Part shown: in pieces, positions 13,416-53,288 of the stretch | Numbering within the stretch: position 1 is the first letter of the stretch | How the letters are laid out: every line of letters starts with the position of its first letter | From: a virus | Taxonomy: Duplodnaviria; Caudoviricetes | Strand: one strand, 5' to 3' | IMG/VR virus record: IMGVR_UViG_3300009768_000006 | Location: 38,552-102,551 of that record | Length of the DNA: 64,000 nucleotides | Translations under genes and position numbers: made by a program | Notes under the pieces: model-generated | Database searches by the model: none | Seen by the model: only the letters and a program-made list of their open reading frames with translations | Told to the model about the DNA's origin: nothing

Positions 13416-15203
13416 TTGACTAATTATGACGATAAGTCTATCAGAGTCTTAGGGGACATAGAGCATGTAAGACTTCGCCCAACTATGTATATAAACACGG
13501 ATAGGCCTAGTTTCCAGATGTTCGATGAAATATTCTCTAACGCTCTTGATGAAGCTATAAATGGCTATGCTACGGAATTATCTGTAGAAATAGACTATAA
13601 ACAATCGAAGATAACTGTTACAGATAACGGTAGAGGCTTGCCACAAGGAATCAATGAAGAGACAGGTAAGCCTACTATCGTTATAATCTATAGCAAGCTC
13701 AATTCAGGAGGTAAGTATAACCAAGATAGCTATGGTATATCTGGAGGATTAAATGGAGTAGGATCTTGCGTAGTGAATGCTCTATCAAAACGTCTAGATG
13801 TAGTAACATGGAGAGATAAAATAGCTAAACATGCATCATTCAGTGAAGGTATCTTGACAGTATATGAGTCTATAGGAAATTACAAGTCCAAATCCAAATC
13901 TGGTACTATCGTATCATATTTTATAGATACTGATCACAAAATATTCACTAGTGATAGTCTTAGTACATATGAGCAAGACATATTAAACAAATTTAGGTTG
14001 GTTAAGACTTTAAGACCTGATATTAACTTAGTTTATAATGGGTCTGCTGTAGATCCTGTAGAATTAGATAAGTTCCTAGTATTCACTAAATCTACACTTT
14101 TAGATAATTCTATCATATACAATTCTAAAGACATTAAGTTAGCTATCAACTGGAGCATAGATACTAATGTATTGCATCAGCAAACTTACTGTAATTTCAT
14201 CCACAATATATTAGGCGGAGATAATGAAAAAGGATTAGAAGATGCTCTTGTAGAGTATTTTAATAATCGTGATATATTATTAGGATTACGTCTAGTAATT
14301 TCTACTATGTATCCTAATGTAGAATATGATTCTCAAGCGAAGCTAAAAGCTGTATCTAAAGACATGAGATTGTATGTAAAGGATAAAGTCCTAGCATATC
14401 TTAAGAATTATTTTAAATCAAATCCTGATGATAAAGAGAAGATAATTCAACTCATCAATACTAAACGAGTTGATATGAATAAAAGGAACAATAAGAGCAA
14501 TGTTCGCAGGGATAGGAAAACAGCCTATTTGAATGCTCTAGGAGTAAATGGTTTTGCTGATTGTACAACGAAGTGTAGGGATGATGCTGAGCTTTACATA
14601 TGTGAAGGTGAGTCAGCTGCGGGGTCTTTGAAGCAAGCTAGGGACGTCTTAACTCAGGCAATCATGCCCTTGAGAGGGAAGTTCATTAATGCTTACACTG
14701 CTGATGTCTCCTCATTATTGAAGAATGCGGAAGTAGCTACACTATTATCCAGTATTAATACAGGAATATATGAAGAAGCTAATATAGTAAAGTCTAGATA
14801 TGGTAAGATAATAATAACTACAGACGCAGATGAAGATGGTAAGAATATTGCTTGTCTGCTTATAGCATTCTTCGCTAATACCATACCAGATTTACTGAGG
14901 AATGGTCTAATATACTTAGCATTGCCTCCACTATACGGTACTAATATTAAGAATACATTTATCCCTATATATACTGAATTAGAGAAGGATAGATATTTAG
15001 CCCAAGGTGCATATGTACAACGTTATAAAGGTTTGGGTGAAATGTCCGTCCCTCAGATAAGTCTCTCCTGCATGAATAAGGAGACTAGAAAAATACTGCA
15101 ATTAGTATCTACTGACGCATGTATGAAAGTGGTGGCTGATATTATGGGTAGTAATTCAGATTACAGAAGAGATCTTCTTAAGAAAGTAGGTGTACTGCTA
15201 TGA
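13416..15203 (+). CDS. gyrB: Type IIA topoisomerase subunit B (GyrB/ParE-like)
   Basis: EHVRLRPTMYI, NALDEA, DNGRG, GGLNGVG, EGESA, PLRGK, DADEDG, RYKGLGEM. Confidence 0.9.
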   Translation: MTNYDDKSIRVLGDIEHVRLRPTMYINTDRPSFQMFDEIFSNALDEAINGYATELSVEIDYKQSKITVTDNGRGLPQGINEETGKPTIVIIYSKLNSGGKYNQDSYGISGGLNGVGSCVVNALSKRLDVVTWRDKIAKHASFSEGILTVYESIGNYKSKSKSGTIVSYFIDTDHKIFTSDSLSTYEQDILNKFRLVKTLRPDINLVYNGSAVDPVELDKFLVFTKSTLLDNSIIYNSKDIKLAINWSIDTNVLHQQTYCNFIHNILGGDNEKGLEDALVEYFNNRDILLGLRLVISTMYPNVEYDSQAKLKAVSKDMRLYVKDKVLAYLKNYFKSNPDDKEKIIQLINTKRVDMNKRNNKSNVRRDRKTAYLNALGVNGFADCTTKCRDDAELYICEGESAAGSLKQARDVLTQAIMPLRGKFINAYTADVSSLLKNAEVATLLSSINTGIYEEANIVKSRYGKIIITTDADEDGKNIACLLIAFFANTIPDLLRNGLIYLALPPLYGTNIKNTFIPIYTELEKDRYLAQGAYVQRYKGLGEMSVPQISLSCMNKETRKILQLVSTDACMKVVADIMGSNSDYRRDLLKKVGVLL

Positions 15204-46476: not shown

Positions 46477-46500
46477 GCCTAACTCATCAGTAGCTAACGT
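46477..46500 (+). promoter_or_regulatory. Phage promoter motif P16
   Basis: GCCTAACT-N11-AACGT upstream of tRNA/ncRNA block. Confidence 0.8.
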
Positions 46501-46573
46501 TTATTATGGTGTAAAAAGTTCTTTGAAAACTTCATAAATAAACTGGATCAGGACTCTTAATTGAGTCCTTCGT

Positions 46574-46650
46574 GGATCGTTAGTTCAGTTGGTTAGAGCA
46601 TCTGTCTCATAAACAGAGTGTCACTGGTTCAAGTCCAGTACGATCCACCA
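46574..46650 (+). tRNA. tRNA-CAT (Ile2 or elongator Met)
   Basis: Cloverleaf GGATCGT/ACGATCC, anticodon arm TCTGT-CTCATAA-ACAGA, encoded CCA. Confidence 0.9.
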
Positions 46651-47235
46651 GGCCGCAATCGGCCATAAGTTAAGCTGGCGAGTGCTAGTAGGATTCCTTC
46701 TGGTGAAATCCCAGATATGCTTCGAAGGATGCCTCATGGAATAGCCACTTGCTTTTAGAGGACATTGAAGACTCTCACAAGTAATGCGAGACTGTTGGAG
46801 AAATCTTCTTAATGATGGACTTAGTAGCGAGTGAGTTCCTTCTAAGTGAACTGCGTTACGCAGATTATTTAAGGATGAGCGTTGGTAGGAAACGATACTT
46901 ACCGAGGGGTAGCGCAACTACTGGTAACAGGATGTTGAGGTTGGTTCAGCTATCAGCCAAGGATGGGACTTGGCAAAAGTCCTGTTCATCCATTAAAAAT
47001 CTTTCGAAGGTTGCTTCCTAATCTTTGTCTAAAGGAGGGTGAACGGCAAGGAACCAGGGTTCGAACCTTAGGTTGAGGTTTATGTTCGTGGAGCTAGGAT
47101 GCAAGCTAATAAGGGTGATCAAATAGGTCATCAAACTTAGCCTATACGGAGCGTAGAAGCGGGGAAAATAGACCTAAGAGTGGCGAGGTAGGATTACTCG
47201 GTATGGGACAACGCCTGTCTCATAAAATCCGTTTC
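46651..47235 (+). ncRNA. Large structured ncRNA candidate (about 580 nt)
   Basis: ORF-poor, GC-elevated, more than 10 hairpins with G-U pairs, abuts the tRNA CCA end. Confidence 0.65.
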
Positions 47236-47270
47236 TTTAAAGTACTAATTAGTGAAAGGATGATTTACTA

Positions 47271-47570
47271 ATGAAGAAACTATATAATGTGGCTTTGATA
47301 AAGAAGGTAACTCCTGATGAATTAGCAGAACAGGAAGTTCATGAAACGTGAGCTTCTGTAATAAATGGTGCAGAACTTTACGCAACTAAAGCTCCTAATG
47401 GTAAAGATGTTGAAATTTTGTTCTGGAGGAGCATGAAGCTGAAAAGTTTAGTAAGTCTGATATTCACTAGGGATTTCGCTAAGGAGCACTTCAAAGTCAC
47501 TGGTAACGCTTCAGATTGGATGGGGCAAGAAATCAGTAAGCAGATAAACAAAGAGGAAGATTACAACTAA
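47271..47570 (+). pseudogene. 99-codon ORF with in-frame TGA at codon 27
   Basis: MKKLYNVAL...EVHET*ASVING...; GAAAGGA RBS; TGA at 47349. Confidence 0.55.
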
Positions 47571-47581
47571 GTATAAAGTTT

Positions 47582-47972
47582 GTGGTAGGATATCTGGATG
47601 ACATTCCACGATTAGCTAGCGTCGTGTTCCTACCATGATAAAAGAAATCCAGCGTTGAAGGGATACGTTACGCCTTCCGGGGTCGCAGATTGTGGGACTT
47701 GGTAACAAGACTTATAAGGGGAAGGGTCTGCGTGTGTGGGATTCGGTGTGTGGCAAATCTCACAAAGTAAAAGAAGCAAGGGTTAGATAGGGTTAGGGGT
47801 TTAGCAGGTTTATGGGCTGTGGCCGATGGCCATTTCTTCTTACTGCTAGACAAAGGCAACCATCATGAATGAAGGTTGGTGTAGCTTCTTTTAAGGGTTA
47901 ATGTGCTCTTATCGTTTATGAAGGTAAGACAAATCCAAAGGGTTTAAGTAGGGTTCGAGTCCCATTTAAAAG
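47582..47972 (+). ncRNA. Structured ncRNA candidate (about 390 nt) with pseudoknot, G-tracts and T-loop
   Basis: Multiple nested stems; GGGTTCGAGTCCC at 47951; ends just before tRNA-Asn. Confidence 0.6.
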
Positions 47973-47979
47973 CATAGTT

Positions 47980-48054
47980 GGTGAGTTAGCTCAACGGTAG
48001 AGCTTTCGGCTGTTAACCGAACGGTTGTGAGTTCGAATCTCACACTCACCTCCA
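47980..48054 (+). tRNA. tRNA-Asn(GTT)
   Basis: GGTGAGT/ACTCACC, TTCGG-CTGTTAA-CCGAA, CCA. Confidence 0.92.
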
Positions 48055-48104
48055 GAATCTTATAACCTGTAGCTATATGATGAATAAGTAAGGAGTTTCT
48101 AAAG

Positions 48105-48416
48105 ATGTTCAAAACAGGTATTATCAGAAGAATTGATGATCTTGGAAGAATCGTAATCCCTAGGGATGTTAGACGTAGATTAGGACTTATCGAAGGTGCT
48201 GCACTAGAAATCTGCATCGATCAAGGTAAAGTATTTCTTCAGAAATATGATCCTACAGAGGATGTTAATGGTCATATAAGCTCACTCAAGGACGTACTTA
48301 ATGATGCTAAGGGTTATACGTTACCTAATGATTGTGTAGAAAGCTTGCTCACTATGTTGCAAGACTTCGAGCAAACTTTACAAGAAGGGATTCAGAAACA
48401 GAGAAAACTTGTGTAA
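48105..48416 (+). CDS. AbrB/SpoVT-family transcription regulator
   Basis: TGIIRRIDDLGRIVIP..VRR.L.L.EG..LEI. Confidence 0.9.
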   Translation: MFKTGIIRRIDDLGRIVIPRDVRRRLGLIEGAALEICIDQGKVFLQKYDPTEDVNGHISSLKDVLNDAKGYTLPNDCVESLLTMLQDFEQTLQEGIQKQRKLV

Positions 48417-48438
48417 TGAAAGTGAGGTTTAAATATGT

Positions 48439-48585
48439 ATGAATGAGCCTATTATTGAGATGAATCAAGAGTGGGAAAGTCTGGATGTTGATGATTTGAT
48501 GGACTTAGATCTATTGGATTTAGATGATCCTGATATTACTGAGTATGATGGTTGCGATTTTGGAGACATAGATTACTATGAATAA
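48439..48585 (+). CDS. 48-aa hyper-acidic protein
   Basis: Hand translation; 19 D/E, no K/R. Confidence 0.45.
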   Translation: MNEPIIEMNQEWESLDVDDLMDLDLLDLDDPDITEYDGCDFGDIDYYE

Positions 48586-48609
48586 CCTATTATATATTAG
48601 GAGTTTACT

Positions 48610-48936
48610 ATGAAGAAGGCAATGCTATCTCAGCCTATGGCTGGCAAGACGGAAGAGGAGATCATTTCAACGAGAGAAAAAGCTATCAAGCTTCTGGAAT
48701 CTCTAGGATATGAAGTAGTCAATACTCTATTCACAGATGAGTGGTACAGTAAAGAGAAAATGGTCGAAAGAGGCGTAGTCCAGATTCCACTTTGTTTCCT
48801 TGCTAAAAGCCTAGAGAATATGTCACTATGTCATGCAGCTTATTTCTGTGATGGTTGGGAGAAAGCTAGAGGCTGCAGAATTGAGCATGATGCAGCTGAA
48901 GCTTATGGACTCGAAATCCTATATGAGAGGACATAG
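48610..48936 (+). CDS. DUF4406-like (NDT-fold) protein
   Basis: MLSQPMAG...YFCDGWEKARGCRIEH..A..YG. Confidence 0.7.
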   Translation: MKKAMLSQPMAGKTEEEIISTREKAIKLLESLGYEVVNTLFTDEWYSKEKMVERGVVQIPLCFLAKSLENMSLCHAAYFCDGWEKARGCRIEHDAAEAYGLEILYERT

Positions 48937-48947
48937 ATAAGACACTA

Positions 48948-48974
48948 GCTATCATGACGGAATCGGCAGACGTA
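48948..48974 (+). pseudogene. 5' fragment of a tRNA-Leu
   Basis: GCTATCATGACGGAATCGGCAGACG parallels the 5' end of tRNA-Leu(TAG) at 53203. Confidence 0.6.
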
Positions 48975-48977
48975 TAA

Positions 48978-49064
48978 GGCGGTATGGTGGAATTTGGCAT
49001 ACACACTGAACTTAAAATTCAGCAAGAGAAATCTTTGCGAGTTCGAATCTCGCTACCGCTACCA
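48978..49064 (+). tRNA. tRNA-Leu(TAA)
   Basis: CTGAA-CTTAAAA-TTCAG, long variable arm, CCA. Confidence 0.9.
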
Positions 49065-49165
49065 GATTGAATAAGAAAACAATAGCCTGATCATCTATTG
49101 AGATAATGATGCTCCTACATCAAGCTTATTCAATTAATTTAATAATTATTAGGAGGTAATTAACC

Positions 49166-49387
49166 ATCTATAAATGCATATGCAGTAAAGAATTTGAGAA
49201 GAGTCAATCTTATGTTGCTCATTGTAGTCATTGCAAAGTTCATTTAGGTTATAGTCCTATTGATAGATTTGGAGAATCTAGAGCATGGAATAAAGGTAGG
49301 ACTGTAGAAGATCCTGTATATGGAGATTCTATTAAGAAGATGAATATACAGACCCCTATTTATGACCTAACTTATACTATCTCGTAG
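49166..49387 (+). pseudogene. Degenerate homing-endonuclease-like N-terminus
   Basis: AGGAGG RBS then ATC in place of ATG; YKCICSKEF...AHCSHC, AWNKG (NUMOD3-like). Confidence 0.5.
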
Positions 49388-49448
49388 ACTTAGCAGAAAT
49401 TCCTATGAATAAGACAACAATTCATCTAATAGAAGCTGAATAAATTTA

Positions 49449-49472
49449 GCCTAACTTAAGACTAATGAACGT
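49449..49472 (+). promoter_or_regulatory. Phage promoter motif P17
   Basis: GCCTAACT-N11-AACGT. Confidence 0.8.
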
Positions 49473-49527
49473 CTATTAGGTTGAAAGAGGAATTAACTCT
49501 TAATTAACTTGAGGAGGATTTAAGAAA

Positions 49528-50436
49528 ATGGAAAGAATGACTGAAAGAGTCCCTATGTGGGAGAGGATTGGCACTTCTTCTGAGGATCACAGCTTTGATG
49601 CTCTGTTCAACAAAGCAGGTCTCAACTACAAGGTTGAGGTGAGAGATCTTCTCACAAGCAATGGCGTAGAGGTCAGGAAGGTCCCTGATAGGTTCGCTAC
49701 TGTCAGATCCGATACGGGCGATGTGCTCGGTATCGTAAGTGATCGGTACAAGGTTTGCCAGAATGAAGATGCTCTGGATTTCGTCAAGTTCATCGATGGA
49801 GTGGATCTCATCAGAGCAGGTATCTACAATGGAGGTTCCGGCTGCTACATGATCGGTAAGCTCCCTGAAGTCACTGTCCTCGGAGATAAAATCAGGCCTA
49901 ACATCATCTGGCAGAACACTCATGATGGATCTGGGAGCATCAGAAGTACTGTCTGCATGCTGCGTCTCGTTTGCCAGAATCAGTTCGTGCAAAGCTTCAA
50001 GAATTCGCCTGTGACTATCAAGTTCTCTCACATGGGCGACTTGAATGAAAAACTTCTCGCTGCTAAGCAGCAACTCGTCAGTGTCTATGACTACATCAGC
50101 GTGTATGAGGAAGAAGCTACTAAGTATGCTAGGAGCAAGATCACTCCTGAGAAATTCAACAAGATTCTCCAGTCCATGTTCAATATCAAAGAAGATAACT
50201 CGCCCAGGCTGAACCAGAGGCTCGAAACTGAGAAATCCATGTTTATCACAGCCTATGAACAAGAGGATAACCAGAACTTCAAAGGTACAAAGTGGGGAGT
50301 CATCAACGCTTTCAGTGACTTCATTACTCACGGAGCTCCTTCCCGTAAGTCTGAGAACTGGGATGAGAACAGATTCCTCTGGAGTCTGAATCCTAGCATC
50401 ATGGACAACTTCGTAGAGCTTATCGAAGCTGCTTAA
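49528..50436 (+). CDS. DUF932/DUF945-family protein
   Basis: AGLNYKV, ATVRSDTG.VLGIVSDRYKVCQN, NTHDGSG, RLVCQN, GTKWGVINA. Confidence 0.85.
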   Translation: MERMTERVPMWERIGTSSEDHSFDALFNKAGLNYKVEVRDLLTSNGVEVRKVPDRFATVRSDTGDVLGIVSDRYKVCQNEDALDFVKFIDGVDLIRAGIYNGGSGCYMIGKLPEVTVLGDKIRPNIIWQNTHDGSGSIRSTVCMLRLVCQNQFVQSFKNSPVTIKFSHMGDLNEKLLAAKQQLVSVYDYISVYEEEATKYARSKITPEKFNKILQSMFNIKEDNSPRLNQRLETEKSMFITAYEQEDNQNFKGTKWGVINAFSDFITHGAPSRKSENWDENRFLWSLNPSIMDNFVELIEAA

Positions 50437-50443
50437 AATCAGC

Positions 50444-50476
50444 AGGAGGCTGAGATAACCTCTTAGCCTCCTTATT
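50444..50476 (+). terminator. Hairpin/terminator before tRNA-Val
   Basis: AGGAGGCTGAGA...TCTTAGCCTCCT. Confidence 0.65.
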
Positions 50477-50478
50477 CT

Positions 50479-50554
50479 AGTCCGTTAGCTCAGTTGGGAG
50501 AGCGCTTGCCTTACAAGCAAGAGGTCCAGGGTTCGAGCCCCTGACGGACTACCA
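50479..50554 (+). tRNA. tRNA-Val(TAC)
   Basis: CTTGC-CTTACAA-GCAAG, CCA. Confidence 0.93.
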
Positions 50555-50574
50555 TAATATATAAGGAGGGTTCT

Positions 50575-51123
50575 ATGCATAAATTTCTATATGAGAGTGA
50601 CTATAATGATGATCCTGAAATAGTACATCAAGAATATACTAGTGCTAAGACCAGTATCAATAGTAGAAAATTACCTGCTATATTCTCGAAGATAGATTTC
50701 GAAGAAGGATCTATAAATTTGGATATAGGAGGAGGTAAGTATGATAATGTAGCAAATTGGATGAAACGTACTTATAATGCTACTAACTTGGTATATGATC
50801 CTTACAATAGATCTGATGAACATAATAGTAGAGTAATAAATATAGTCAGGGAACATGGAGGAGCAGACACAGTTACCTGCTCTAATGTATTGAATGTCAT
50901 AAAAGAAGAAGAAGCTAGGCTTGCTGTATTAAGAAACTGTAGAAAGTATCTTAAGCCTGGAGGTACTTGCTATATCACAGTCTATGAGAATGATAGAGAT
51001 GGAGTAGGTAAAGTTACTACTTCAGGATATCAGCTCAATAGAAGATTAGCGGATTATGTAGATGAAGTTAGCGAAATCTTCAGATCAGTTACTATACGTA
51101 ATAATATGATAATAGCTAGGTAA
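50575..51123 (+). CDS. Class I SAM-dependent methyltransferase
   Basis: NLDIGGGK, YDPY, SNVLNVI, LKPGG. Confidence 0.85.
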   Translation: MHKFLYESDYNDDPEIVHQEYTSAKTSINSRKLPAIFSKIDFEEGSINLDIGGGKYDNVANWMKRTYNATNLVYDPYNRSDEHNSRVINIVREHGGADTVTCSNVLNVIKEEEARLAVLRNCRKYLKPGGTCYITVYENDRDGVGKVTTSGYQLNRRLADYVDEVSEIFRSVTIRNNMIIAR

Positions 51124-51134
51124 GGAGAATCATC

Positions 51135-51449
51135 ATGGATAAAGAGAATATACTAAGACTATGTCTACAATCCTATGGTATATACTCACAGTCTATCATG
51201 GCTTTAGAAGAAATGAGTGAATTAGCTAAGGAGCTTTGCAAGACTTTCAGAGTACCTGACGATAAGGTATTTGAGCTAGGCTTAGCTGATAAGATAAGAG
51301 AAGAAATAGCTGATGTCAAAATCATGATGTATCAATTAGAACTATATTATGGTGATACTAGTGAATGGGAAGAGAAGAAATTAGCTAGACTAGAGGCTAT
51401 TATGAACAGAGATGCTAAGAATGGTAGTAATACATTCGTCATAAAATAG
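51135..51449 (+). CDS. MazG-like nucleotide pyrophosphohydrolase
   Basis: EEMSEL..EL...EEIADV. Confidence 0.75.
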   Translation: MDKENILRLCLQSYGIYSQSIMALEEMSELAKELCKTFRVPDDKVFELGLADKIREEIADVKIMMYQLELYYGDTSEWEEKKLARLEAIMNRDAKNGSNTFVIK

Positions 51450-51472
51450 CCTAACTCATGAGGATGTAACGT
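51449..51472 (+). promoter_or_regulatory. Phage promoter motif P18
   Basis: GCCTAACT-N11-AACGT, 10 nt upstream of tRNA-Ser. Confidence 0.85.
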
Positions 51473-51482
51473 TTATTATGTT

Positions 51483-51570
51483 GGAGAGTTGTCCGAGTGG
51501 TTTATGGAGTTGGTCTTGAAAATCAACGATCCTCCAGGATCCCAGAGTTCAAATCTCTGACTCTCCGCCA
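51483..51570 (+). tRNA. tRNA-Ser(TGA)
   Basis: GGAGAGT/ACTCTCC, TTGGT-CTTGAAA-ATCAA, variable arm, GCCA. Confidence 0.92.
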
Positions 51571-51910
51571 GTGCTTAGCGATAGGTAGTAGTCTAAGCTA
51601 GTATGGAACAAGAGGCTGTAAACTGATGAAGTTTACGAGATCTCCAAGATAAGTTTATGATAAGAATTAACTTACTCTTGCAAGTACATTAATTATACTA
51701 GTTATAATAAAGCTCGTACAAGTAATCCTTAGTATCTTATCTACTATGTCAACGTAGGTCTAAACGTTGAGAAAGGTTATGGAGTACGAAGGTTGTGGAG
51801 AGTCTAAGTATTATAGGAGAGGGGTTAGTTGATCTGTTGTGTCGGAGGGTAGGAGTACTAGCAATTCATGTTACTGAGTACAAGTATCCTGTAATGCTTA
51901 TTCTCTCCAT
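51571..51910 (+). ncRNA. Structured ncRNA candidate (about 340 nt)
   Basis: No ORF; long stems with G-U pairs directly after tRNA-Ser. Confidence 0.55.
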
Positions 51911-51934
51911 GGATCTTAAAAAAGGAGTTTACTT

Positions 51935-52240
51935 ATGAAAGACTATCAGGTCAGAGTGAATTGCACTGAAACTACTACTAGGGATGTCATAGTGAACGTA
52001 GATCCTATGGAATTCCTTGATCAGCTAATAACTTCTGTAGTTCAGCTTCCTAGAGACACTATCATAGATGATAAAGGGAATTATGTAATTCCTAATAAAG
52101 ATATCTCTCAGAGATTGATCATCAACAATTACATAACTCTCAATGTCAAACTCAGTGAAGAAGAAATCACTGTATTCAAGGATATCTTAAAGCTTAAGGA
52201 TTCTTTAAACAAGCTACTTAATGGTCCATTAGCTCAGTAG
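51935..52240 (+). CDS. Hypothetical protein (3' end overlaps tRNA-Arg)
   Basis: AGGAG RBS. Confidence 0.6.
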   Translation: MKDYQVRVNCTETTTRDVIVNVDPMEFLDQLITSVVQLPRDTIIDDKGNYVIPNKDISQRLIINNYITLNVKLSEEEITVFKDILKLKDSLNKLLNGPLAQ

Positions 52241-52299
52241 GATAGAGCAATAGCCTTCTAAGCTATGAGTCTGAGGTTCGATTCCTCAATGGATCACCA
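52223..52299 (+). tRNA. tRNA-Arg(TCT)
   Basis: ATAGC-CTTCTAA-GCTAT, CCA. Confidence 0.92.
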
Positions 52300-52326
52300 A
52301 CACTAGTAACGGAGGATCTAACTAAT

Positions 52327-52572
52327 ATGAATTACTTGCATAGAGTTGAAGCAGCTATAGTAGAGAAAATATATGAGCAGGGAGGTGTATGGTGTAAAAT
52401 TACTACTTTAAAGACTAACGTTGATATAACTATATACAGATATGGATTCACAGCATATGAGAATTTGGCTAGAGATAAATTCGCTGTAATAGAATCAGGA
52501 GTTACTAAGCTAGAGGAAGCATCTCTACAAGATGTTGCCAAGTATATAATAATCAGGAATAAATCTAAGTGA
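52327..52572 (+). CDS. Hypothetical protein
   Basis: GGAGG RBS. Confidence 0.6.
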   Translation: MNYLHRVEAAIVEKIYEQGGVWCKITTLKTNVDITIYRYGFTAYENLARDKFAVIESGVTKLEEASLQDVAKYIIIRNKSK

Positions 52573-52573
52573 T

Positions 52574-52647
52574 GCTAATGTAGTATAAAGGTAGTATACT
52601 AGTCTTCCAAATTAGTGGTGTGGGTTCGATTCCCATCATTAGCTCCA
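52574..52647 (+). tRNA. tRNA-Gly(TCC)
   Basis: GCTAATG/CATTAGC, CTAGT-CTTCCAA-ATTAG, TCCA. Confidence 0.88.
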
Positions 52648-52830
52648 ATTAACTAAGGAGGATTACATAATGGAAGAGAAACTCTATATCTATAGGATCT
52701 CAGAAACTTTTCCTCTTGAAATTGAATTGATGGATAAACGTACAATAGTTTATGAGAACTCGCAATATTACTACTGTAAAGTTAATGGAGTTAATGGGTC
52801 AATCTATCTAGAGTCTCATCCAAAAACTAT

Positions 52831-53070
52831 GTGAACAATCCAGAACTAGGATTGCATTCAGTATTTACAGAATCCTTCTTGAGAGAACATGATTATAATA
52901 TAGAAGCATTATTAAGGGATAAGCTGAAGGATTCTTTGAGATGGAAAATTAATCATGATCAATTAAATATCGAAGAGCTTGAAGATAGACTGAAGAAAGC
53001 TAGAGAATCATTGAAATCACACTCAGATCAACTACAAGTCTTGACTGATAATACTGAAGAATCTACGTAA
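52831..53070 (+). CDS. Hypothetical coiled-coil protein (possibly 3' part of a frameshifted gene starting at 52670)
   Basis: ORF; upstream 54-codon ORF overlaps at ATGTGA. Confidence 0.45.
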   Translation: MNNPELGLHSVFTESFLREHDYNIEALLRDKLKDSLRWKINHDQLNIEELEDRLKKARESLKSHSDQLQVLTDNTEEST

Positions 53071-53075
53071 ATCCT

Positions 53076-53151
53076 GCTCCGTTAGCTCAATTGGTAGAGC
53101 ATCGGTTTTGTACTCCGAGGGTTGCGAATTCAAATTTTGCACGGAGCTCCA
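53076..53151 (+). tRNA. tRNA-Thr(TGT)
   Basis: GCTCCGT/ACGGAGC, anticodon loop TTTGTAC, slightly degenerate stems. Confidence 0.8.
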
Positions 53152-53157
53152 ATATAA

Positions 53158-53181
53158 GGCTAACTTTAGACATTAGAACGT
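53158..53181 (+). promoter_or_regulatory. Phage promoter motif P19
   Basis: GGCTAACT-N11-AACGT. Confidence 0.8.
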
Positions 53182-53202
53182 TACTTATTGTGTAACCAAG
53201 AA

Positions 53203-53288
53203 GCTACTATGGCGGAATTGGCAGACGCGATGGTCTTAGAAGCCATTGGAGAATATCCGTGTCGGTTCGAGTCCGACTAGTAGCACCA
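53203..53288 (+). tRNA. tRNA-Leu(TAG)
   Basis: GCTACTA/TAGTAGC, ATGGT-CTTAGAA-GCCAT, variable arm, CCA. Confidence 0.92.

Follow-up and report, generated by a model that had tools for sequence, protein, structure and literature searches.

A putative multi-domain structured RNA directly downstream of tRNA-Met in the tRNA island of an uncultured phage

The large structured RNAs encoded in phage tRNA islands, i.e. GOLLD, ROOL and the lncRNAs of phage K, are abundant transcripts, and cryo-EM has revealed that GOLLD and ROOL form RNA-only cages; to our knowledge, however abundant they are, none of them has been assigned a function. The tRNA cluster of phage T4 also gives rise to stable non-tRNA RNAs, namely the species 1 and 2 RNAs (rnaC and rnaD), which are co-transcribed with the tRNAs and freed by tRNA-type processing; at ~140 nt they are much smaller than the candidate described here, and we know of no function for them to date. 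Both GOLLD and ROOL lie near tRNA islands, GOLLD env-38 being placed downstream of a tRNA-Met, and the members of the GOLLD family are usually at least 800 nt long and share a universally conserved 3' domain (bioRxiv 10.1101/2024.12.08.627333). Phage K (Kayvirus, Herelleviridae) produces an abundant lncRNA of ~635 nt, which follows tRNA-Met, occupies the interval between this gene and gp032 and is transcribed from the promoter of the tRNA (PMC9241854; KF766114, positions 13595-14229). In our searches the 3' end of this lncRNA (KF766114 13632-13768, minus strand) scored 43.4 bits against DUF3800-I, just below the gathering score of 44.2 bits.

Here we describe a locus found in a window of 64,000 nt, i.e. 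the whole stretch of DNA that was analysed, which covers positions 38552-102551 of an IMG/VR virus record; the record is 102,551 bp long and has direct terminal repeats. Our reading, to which we give a probability of roughly 45%, is that positions 46651-47236 specify a non-coding, plus-strand, multi-domain structured RNA belonging to the tRNA operon of the phage, an orphan accessory RNA that would stand outside the catalogued families. The genome has a GC content of 35.2% (0.352) and almost all of its genes on the plus strand. Its DNA polymerase, of family A, shares only ~25% identity with the enzymes of cultured myophages of Bacillus, Lysinibacillus and Lactobacillus; as judged from sequence the phage represents a deep-branching uncultured lineage, and we infer that its host is probably a Firmicute. 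ARAGORN predicted 9 tRNA genes within 46574-53288, mixed with small ORFs and several ORF-free stretches. The tRNA-Met that precedes the candidate is not of the initiator type, since it has a G1-C72 pair and lacks the GGG/CCC anticodon stem; windows containing its leader hairpin together with part or all of the tRNA fold with z-scores of about -3.8. In the same island, a DUF932 (PF06067) gene at 49528-50436 has a GC content of 44-49% versus 35% in the genome and both of its strands are open; it was probably imported recently, from which it follows that foreign GC-richer DNA enters this region.

The candidate begins at the base directly after the CCA of tRNA-Met, as placed by ARAGORN and Rfam, and extends over 585 nt (Table 1). 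The initial annotation, made from the letters of the sequence, had proposed a ~580-nt non-coding candidate abutting the 3' end of a tRNA, elevated in GC and devoid of any credible ORF, and our results agree with it in all these respects. Thus, the tRNA ends at 46650 and the candidate starts at 46651; the six frames are all closed, with 10-15 stop codons in each of them between 46651 and 47260. The longest overlapping ORFs (98 aa on the minus strand and 69 aa on the plus strand) have neither a Pfam match nor a usable RBS spacing, and exact look-up in a collection of 15 billion proteins showed that neither of the two is a called gene there; the small ORFs of the candidate are not credible because the Shine-Dalgarno-like runs lie right against their start codons or overlap them. 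The GC content of the stretch is 0.43-0.46 versus 0.29-0.33 in the flanking genes (43-46% within a 35% genome), and the intergenic gaps outside the tRNA island range from 0.24 to 0.39. The non-coding stretch is limited on its 3' side by ORF 47271-47570, which is free of further stops when its single in-frame TGA is read as tryptophan; the read-through translation had no PHROG match, and the part after the TGA (47418-47570, the sole part scanned against Pfam) had no match there. Comparison of the candidate with the other ORF-free spacers of the tRNA island revealed no paralogy.

Table 1. Features at and around the candidate RNA (positions in the window; P, predicted pairing probability)
Feature	Position	Strand	Remarks
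Promoter-like motif CTAACT-N11-AACGTT, then TATTAT	46479..46508	+	72 nt upstream of tRNA-Met
Leader hairpin AGGACTC-TTAATT-GAGTCCT	46551..46570	+	Sequence reading; 3 nt before the 5' end of tRNA-Met
tRNA-Met (anticodon CAT) with encoded CCA	46574..46650	+	ARAGORN; Rfam tRNA, 67.5 bits
Predicted 5' module of 3 short hairpins, the first being GGCCG-CAAU-CGGCC at the first base after CCA	46651..46715	+	P 0.97, 0.88, 0.91
Predicted main 290-nt domain, 11-bp closing helix CUUCGAAGGAU/AUCUUUCGAAG around a multi-helix junction	46720..47009	+	Closing helix P=0.98
Predicted 94-nt domain closed by UUGC.UCCUA/UAGGA.GCAA	47011..47104	+	Closing helices P 0.85-0.90; inner pairing ambiguous, P ~0.55
Predicted hairpin domain GCUAA...GGUGAUC-AAAUA-GGUCAUC...UUAGC	47105..47141	+	P 0.91, 1.00
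Predicted 3' 82-nt domain closed by AGAAGCGG/CCGUUUCU, with hairpin UAUGGGACA-ACGCC-UGUCUCAUA	47155..47236	+	P 0.86, 0.94
Downstream 99-codon ORF with RBS and a sole in-frame TGA at 47349	47271..47570	+	3' limit of the non-coding stretch

Transcription of the candidate from an upstream promoter is suggested by the motif CYWACT-N11-AACGTY, which occurs at 23 sites in the window, where 1.1 would be expected; 22 of the sites are on the plus strand, and the copies that were placed lie at gene boundaries. The sites include 45833, 46133, 46479, 49451, 51451, 53160 and 55743, and copies directly precede tRNA-Met and tRNA-Ser(tga). This distribution points to what is probably the phage's own promoter class, and the copy at 46479, whose similarity to the copies at 49443 and 51443 extends over 41 nt, probably drives both tRNA-Met and the candidate. 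There is no copy of the motif between 46501 and 49451, i.e. for ~3 kb downstream, and no convincing intrinsic terminator was found within or after the candidate. Therefore, tRNA-Met, the candidate, ORF 47271-47570, a second ORF-free stretch and tRNA-Asn are probably contained in one transcript.

On the plus strand the candidate folds with a minimum free energy of -191.6 kcal/mol (z -3.48), a stability reached by none of 100 dinucleotide shuffles, and a second folding run gave a z of -3.9. It contains 10 uninterrupted helices of at least 7 bp versus 6.5 +/- 1.8 in the shuffles, 2 of 100 of which reach 10, and fewer G-U pairs than these. The minus strand yielded a z of only -0.64 and folding with DNA parameters a z of -2.04; therefore, the signal is specific to RNA read from the plus strand, which is the transcribed strand. 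As control, 20 coding windows of 585 nt were taken from this genome; their mean z was -0.85 (sd 1.19) and their minimum -3.36, so that the candidate lies ~2 sd beyond the genome's own background, at the edge of its spread and not as a far outlier. The definedness of the fold is only mildly above that of shuffles (7/60 and 5/60 shuffles), and among local windows of 150 nt the lowest values fall at 46825-47049 (z -3.6 and -2.6), with some coding windows being similar. Altogether, the modelling indicates a moderate folding excess over chance. The evidence for the candidate consists of the thermodynamics of one sequence and of its genomic context, which fit a real orphan RNA but also recently acquired or decaying DNA.

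Every one of the dense stems listed in the initial annotation was recovered in its place, most of them with an ensemble pairing probability of at least 0.75. In the anatomy predicted from this single sequence, the 290-nt domain, which appears in the minimum free energy and centroid structures alike, holds ~7 hairpins, one of them with a GUAA tetraloop (46921-46930), and inner helices with P 0.73-1.00. The following 94-nt domain carries an orphan Shine-Dalgarno-like run, AAAGGAGGG, at 47031-47039, and a T-arm-like sequence, CCAGGGTTCGAACC (47054-47067), which agrees with the tRNA-Val T arm of the phage at 13 of 14 bases. The 12-mer CTGTCTCATAAA at 47216-47227, situated in the final hairpin of the candidate, repeats the anticodon stem-loop of tRNA-Met (46603-46614), with ~0.03 chance matches expected; its interpretation as an integration scar was rejected, as no tRNA 3' half follows the repeat. 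An 11-nt GAAA tetraloop receptor was also considered for CCUAAG (47173-78) and UAUGG (47202-06), which occur in the right order, yet it was rejected because the geometry of the intervening helix is unfit and UAUGG is predicted (P 0.94) to pair in another hairpin. No well-supported pairing connects the modules, so that the stretch may act as one RNA or as several.

Homologs of the candidate were sought in isolate, plasmid and metagenomic data alike. Blastn against INPHARED and PLSDB retrieved tRNA matches only or nothing, and the exact 25-nt 3' half of tRNA-Met had 0 matches in IMG/VR. For the large collections, exact peptide patterns were taken from the translated spurious frames that span the candidate; with these patterns, and likewise in RuvC alignment scans, nothing was retrieved from JGI metagenomes or GTDB genomes, the single IMG/VR match (L014) was discarded as a 26-nt chance match unaccompanied by a tRNA, and the other viral scan was empty. 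The flanking 88-aa protein is present in the collection of 15 billion proteins, on 3 contigs in all (JGI/IMG, ENA), one of which is presumably the window's own record. The relatives found in IMG/VR were only IMGVR_UViG_3300029305_001653 (G001), which is clear, and a distant fragment (G003). G001 shares 51% identity with the phage in PolA and 49-52% in RuvC, and its RuvC gene is likewise followed by a tRNA island with, as we read its sequence, the same kind of promoter motif. Gene content and order between RuvC and tRNA-Asn differ from those of the window, tRNA-Met is absent from this relative, and the ORF-free stretches 46651-47260 and 47556-47979 have no similarity to it; a covariance model built on the 156 nt of the candidate that fold best had no match in G001 even with filters off, and none in G003. 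Within the tRNA island, the unit formed by tRNA-Met and the RNA has the look of a cassette placed in a hypervariable segment. As no homolog was found anywhere searched, the fold has no support from covariation: with the large collections searched through exact patterns, INPHARED, PLSDB, IMG/VR, JGI, GTDB, G001 and G003 did not provide even one independent homolog with the compensatory changes that would mark a conserved class.

The tRNA island of G001 presents two peculiarities of its own. A 173-nt tRNA (L012:7824-7996; Rfam 44.1 bits) bears an insertion between the D arm and the T arm, modelled by ARAGORN as a 79-nt anticodon-loop intron plus a long variable arm; 79 nt are too short for a group I intron. 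Directly after tRNA-Asn there is an extra tRNA (L012:8596-8666; Rfam 47.4 bits), which ARAGORN reports at relaxed thresholds only, as tRNA-Pro-like.

A first question is whether the candidate could be a highly diverged GOLLD, ROOL, group I or II intron, tmRNA or RNase P RNA missed by covariance models. In size and place it resembles the first two: the 585 nt lie 3' of tRNA-Met in a nine-tRNA island, as would suit ROOL (~580 nt, in phages or prophages near a tRNA island), and a location near phage or prophage tRNAs is also that of GOLLD. However, when Rfam 15 was searched at gathering level over the whole window, and at E<=10 with lax filters over 9 kb and with a 641-nt query, the former search retrieved tRNAs only and the latter two only tRNAs and noise, with no GOLLD, ROOL, OLE, RNase P, tmRNA, intron or ribozyme match. 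This is the cmscan comparison that the initial annotation had suggested, and it left the candidate outside all the families named there. The best non-tRNA match, HTH-XRE, reached 23.7 bits versus a cut-off of 49.8 and was taken as chance. The covariance model of GOLLD (RF01998), including the conserved 3' domain, had no match at any threshold tried, and when the complete virus record was searched specifically for ROOL (RF03087), nothing was retrieved, although the same search found none in control genomes either. As to tmRNA, ARAGORN detected neither tRNA nor tmRNA inside the candidate at the default, 95% and 85% thresholds, and Rfam no tmRNA; a permuted tmRNA was called at 75%, i.e. at noise level, with an atypical tag (AGKIDLRVAR) that lacks the usual hydrophobic end, and was rejected. 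Introns of group I or group II were discarded as well, there being no Rfam intron match and tRNA-Met being complete without the stretch, and ARAGORN in intron mode (0-900 nt) found no intron-split tRNA around the candidate. A missed member of a known family is thus very improbable indeed. The chance is somewhat better, if still quite slim, that the stretch instead comprises a series of separate small RNAs (sRNAs or tRNA-like modules) which processing would free one from another, since the predicted fold falls into five self-contained modules, no long-range pairs between them are well supported and the pairs closing its 5' and 3' ends are absent from the centroid; this sits badly with the lack of internal promoters and terminators, with the absence of matches between any module and known small RNAs, and with a largest module that by itself measures 290 nt. 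We also consider unlikely a cis-acting role as structured leader, in which the candidate would be the long 5' untranslated region of ORF 47271-47570 and later genes, stabilising or regulating the mRNA once the tRNA is cut off. Neither a terminator nor a promoter motif separates the candidate from the ORF, the last domain stops ~20 nt upstream of its RBS and the first base after CCA is also the exact start of the GC hairpin, as would be convenient for such a leader, but 585 nt would be very long for a gene of 99 codons, this gene carries an in-frame stop and no riboswitch or leader family of Rfam matched the candidate.

The explanation that competes most directly with a functional RNA is that the stretch is non-functional filler, i.e. 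DNA that was imported recently or is decaying (what is left of a foreign gene or of tRNA genes), carried along in the hypervariable part of the island, transcribed just as a spacer and degraded once the tRNA is processed, with stems that come from GC-rich composition and chance. We regard it as possible, though doubtful. The stretch was found neither in the sole clear relative nor in any of the collections searched, the interval from RuvC to tRNA-Asn has another gene content and order than in the relative with the compared non-coding stretches being dissimilar, a TGA interrupts the neighbouring ORF, a GC-rich gene that was probably imported lies nearby and one coding control window also folds at z -3.36. 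Traces of tRNAs point in the same direction. Besides the T-arm sequence shared with tRNA-Val (13/14) and the 12-mer of the tRNA-Met anticodon region, the five best local similarities of the candidate to 19 phage tRNAs exceed those of all 100 shuffles, and a poor tRNA-like relic is found at 47884-47974, 5 nt before tRNA-Asn; this element, called tRNA-Ile(tat) of 87-91 nt by ARAGORN at 85%, has a good T loop (GGGTTCGAGTCCC), a mismatched acceptor and 3-bp arms, and may be a decayed tRNA that ends the second ORF-free stretch (47571-47979). On the other hand, the best of the single tRNA alignments lacks significance (matched by 17 of 100 shuffles), and inside the candidate there is no Rfam tRNA at E<=10 and none by ARAGORN at 85%. 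Decay does not predict a folding excess that is strand-specific and stronger under RNA than under DNA parameters. Moreover, neutral DNA in an AT-rich phage is expected to drift toward low GC, and a stretch with 44% GC would have to have arrived very recently to survive this AT-biased drift.

A structured RNA is the likeliest single reading, because the stretch is non-coding and high in GC, its folding excess resides on the plus strand, it belongs to a promoter-driven tRNA unit and it starts with a hairpin at the processed 5' end. Published precedents for its layout, i.e. the phage K lncRNA and GOLLD env-38, also speak for this reading. The initial annotation had gone further and suggested that it may be a new giant RNA class. 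The features on which this relied do hold (a non-coding, GC-elevated, stem-dense stretch abutting a tRNA and matching nothing in Rfam), but neither a second member nor covariation was found, and such a class cannot be asserted since nothing similar was found elsewhere. It is tempting to speculate that the candidate is the first known representative of a new class of multi-domain phage RNAs ~0.6 kb in size, and that it is carried in a tRNA-Met-linked cassette, released by tRNA processing, functionally convergent with GOLLD and ROOL and perhaps self-assembling or ribosome-binding through an exposed Shine-Dalgarno-like loop, an idea that we hold to be rather unlikely.

For the structured RNA itself, the following course of events can be proposed. 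As the position of the motif and the lack of a terminator suggest, the transcript would start at the phage-specific promoter motif (46479-46501) and continue across tRNA-Met into the candidate. Excision of the tRNA would be the work of RNase P and of the maturation of its 3' end, the latter step would create the 5' end of the candidate, and the GC hairpin of the first 14 nt could shield this new end from 5'-end-dependent decay. The body is predicted, from one sequence, to fold into the 290-nt junction domain with its 11-bp closing helix and then into three smaller domains. Its role would most likely be that of a stable trans-acting RNA of the tRNA island, as in GOLLD, ROOL or the tRNA-Met-linked lncRNA of phage K, and our guess is that it could touch translation, tRNA biology or host takeover.

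The present value of the candidate is that of a flagged single-sequence case. Among the known systems, GOLLD (RF01998) resembles it in being large and ornate and in occurring in phages and prophages, often within tRNA islands, env-38 being placed behind a tRNA-Met just as the candidate is; however, with 585 nt the latter is shorter than the 800 nt or more usual in GOLLD, and it does not match the model. The length of the ROOL model (RF03087), 574 positions, is close to that of the candidate, and ROOL is likewise encoded in phages and prophages near tRNA islands, but the candidate does not match this model, and no pseudoknotted architecture of the ROOL type could be recognised in it. The likeness to phage K extends to the whole layout, with a promoter, a tRNA-Met and a ~0.6 kb non-coding RNA on the same strand of a large phage. 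Their sequences have no similarity, though; the phage K stretch is AT-rich (35% GC) and ends at an annotated terminator, whereas the candidate has 44% GC and runs into an ORF without a terminator, and phage K infects the Firmicute Staphylococcus aureus whereas the host of our phage is only inferred. If the reading as a structured RNA is true, the finding of an unrelated RNA with the same promoter/tRNA-Met/0.6-kb layout in a deep-branching lineage would suggest that such a layout represents a recurrent, convergent solution, and would offer another handle on what the RNAs of the GOLLD, ROOL and phage K kind do.
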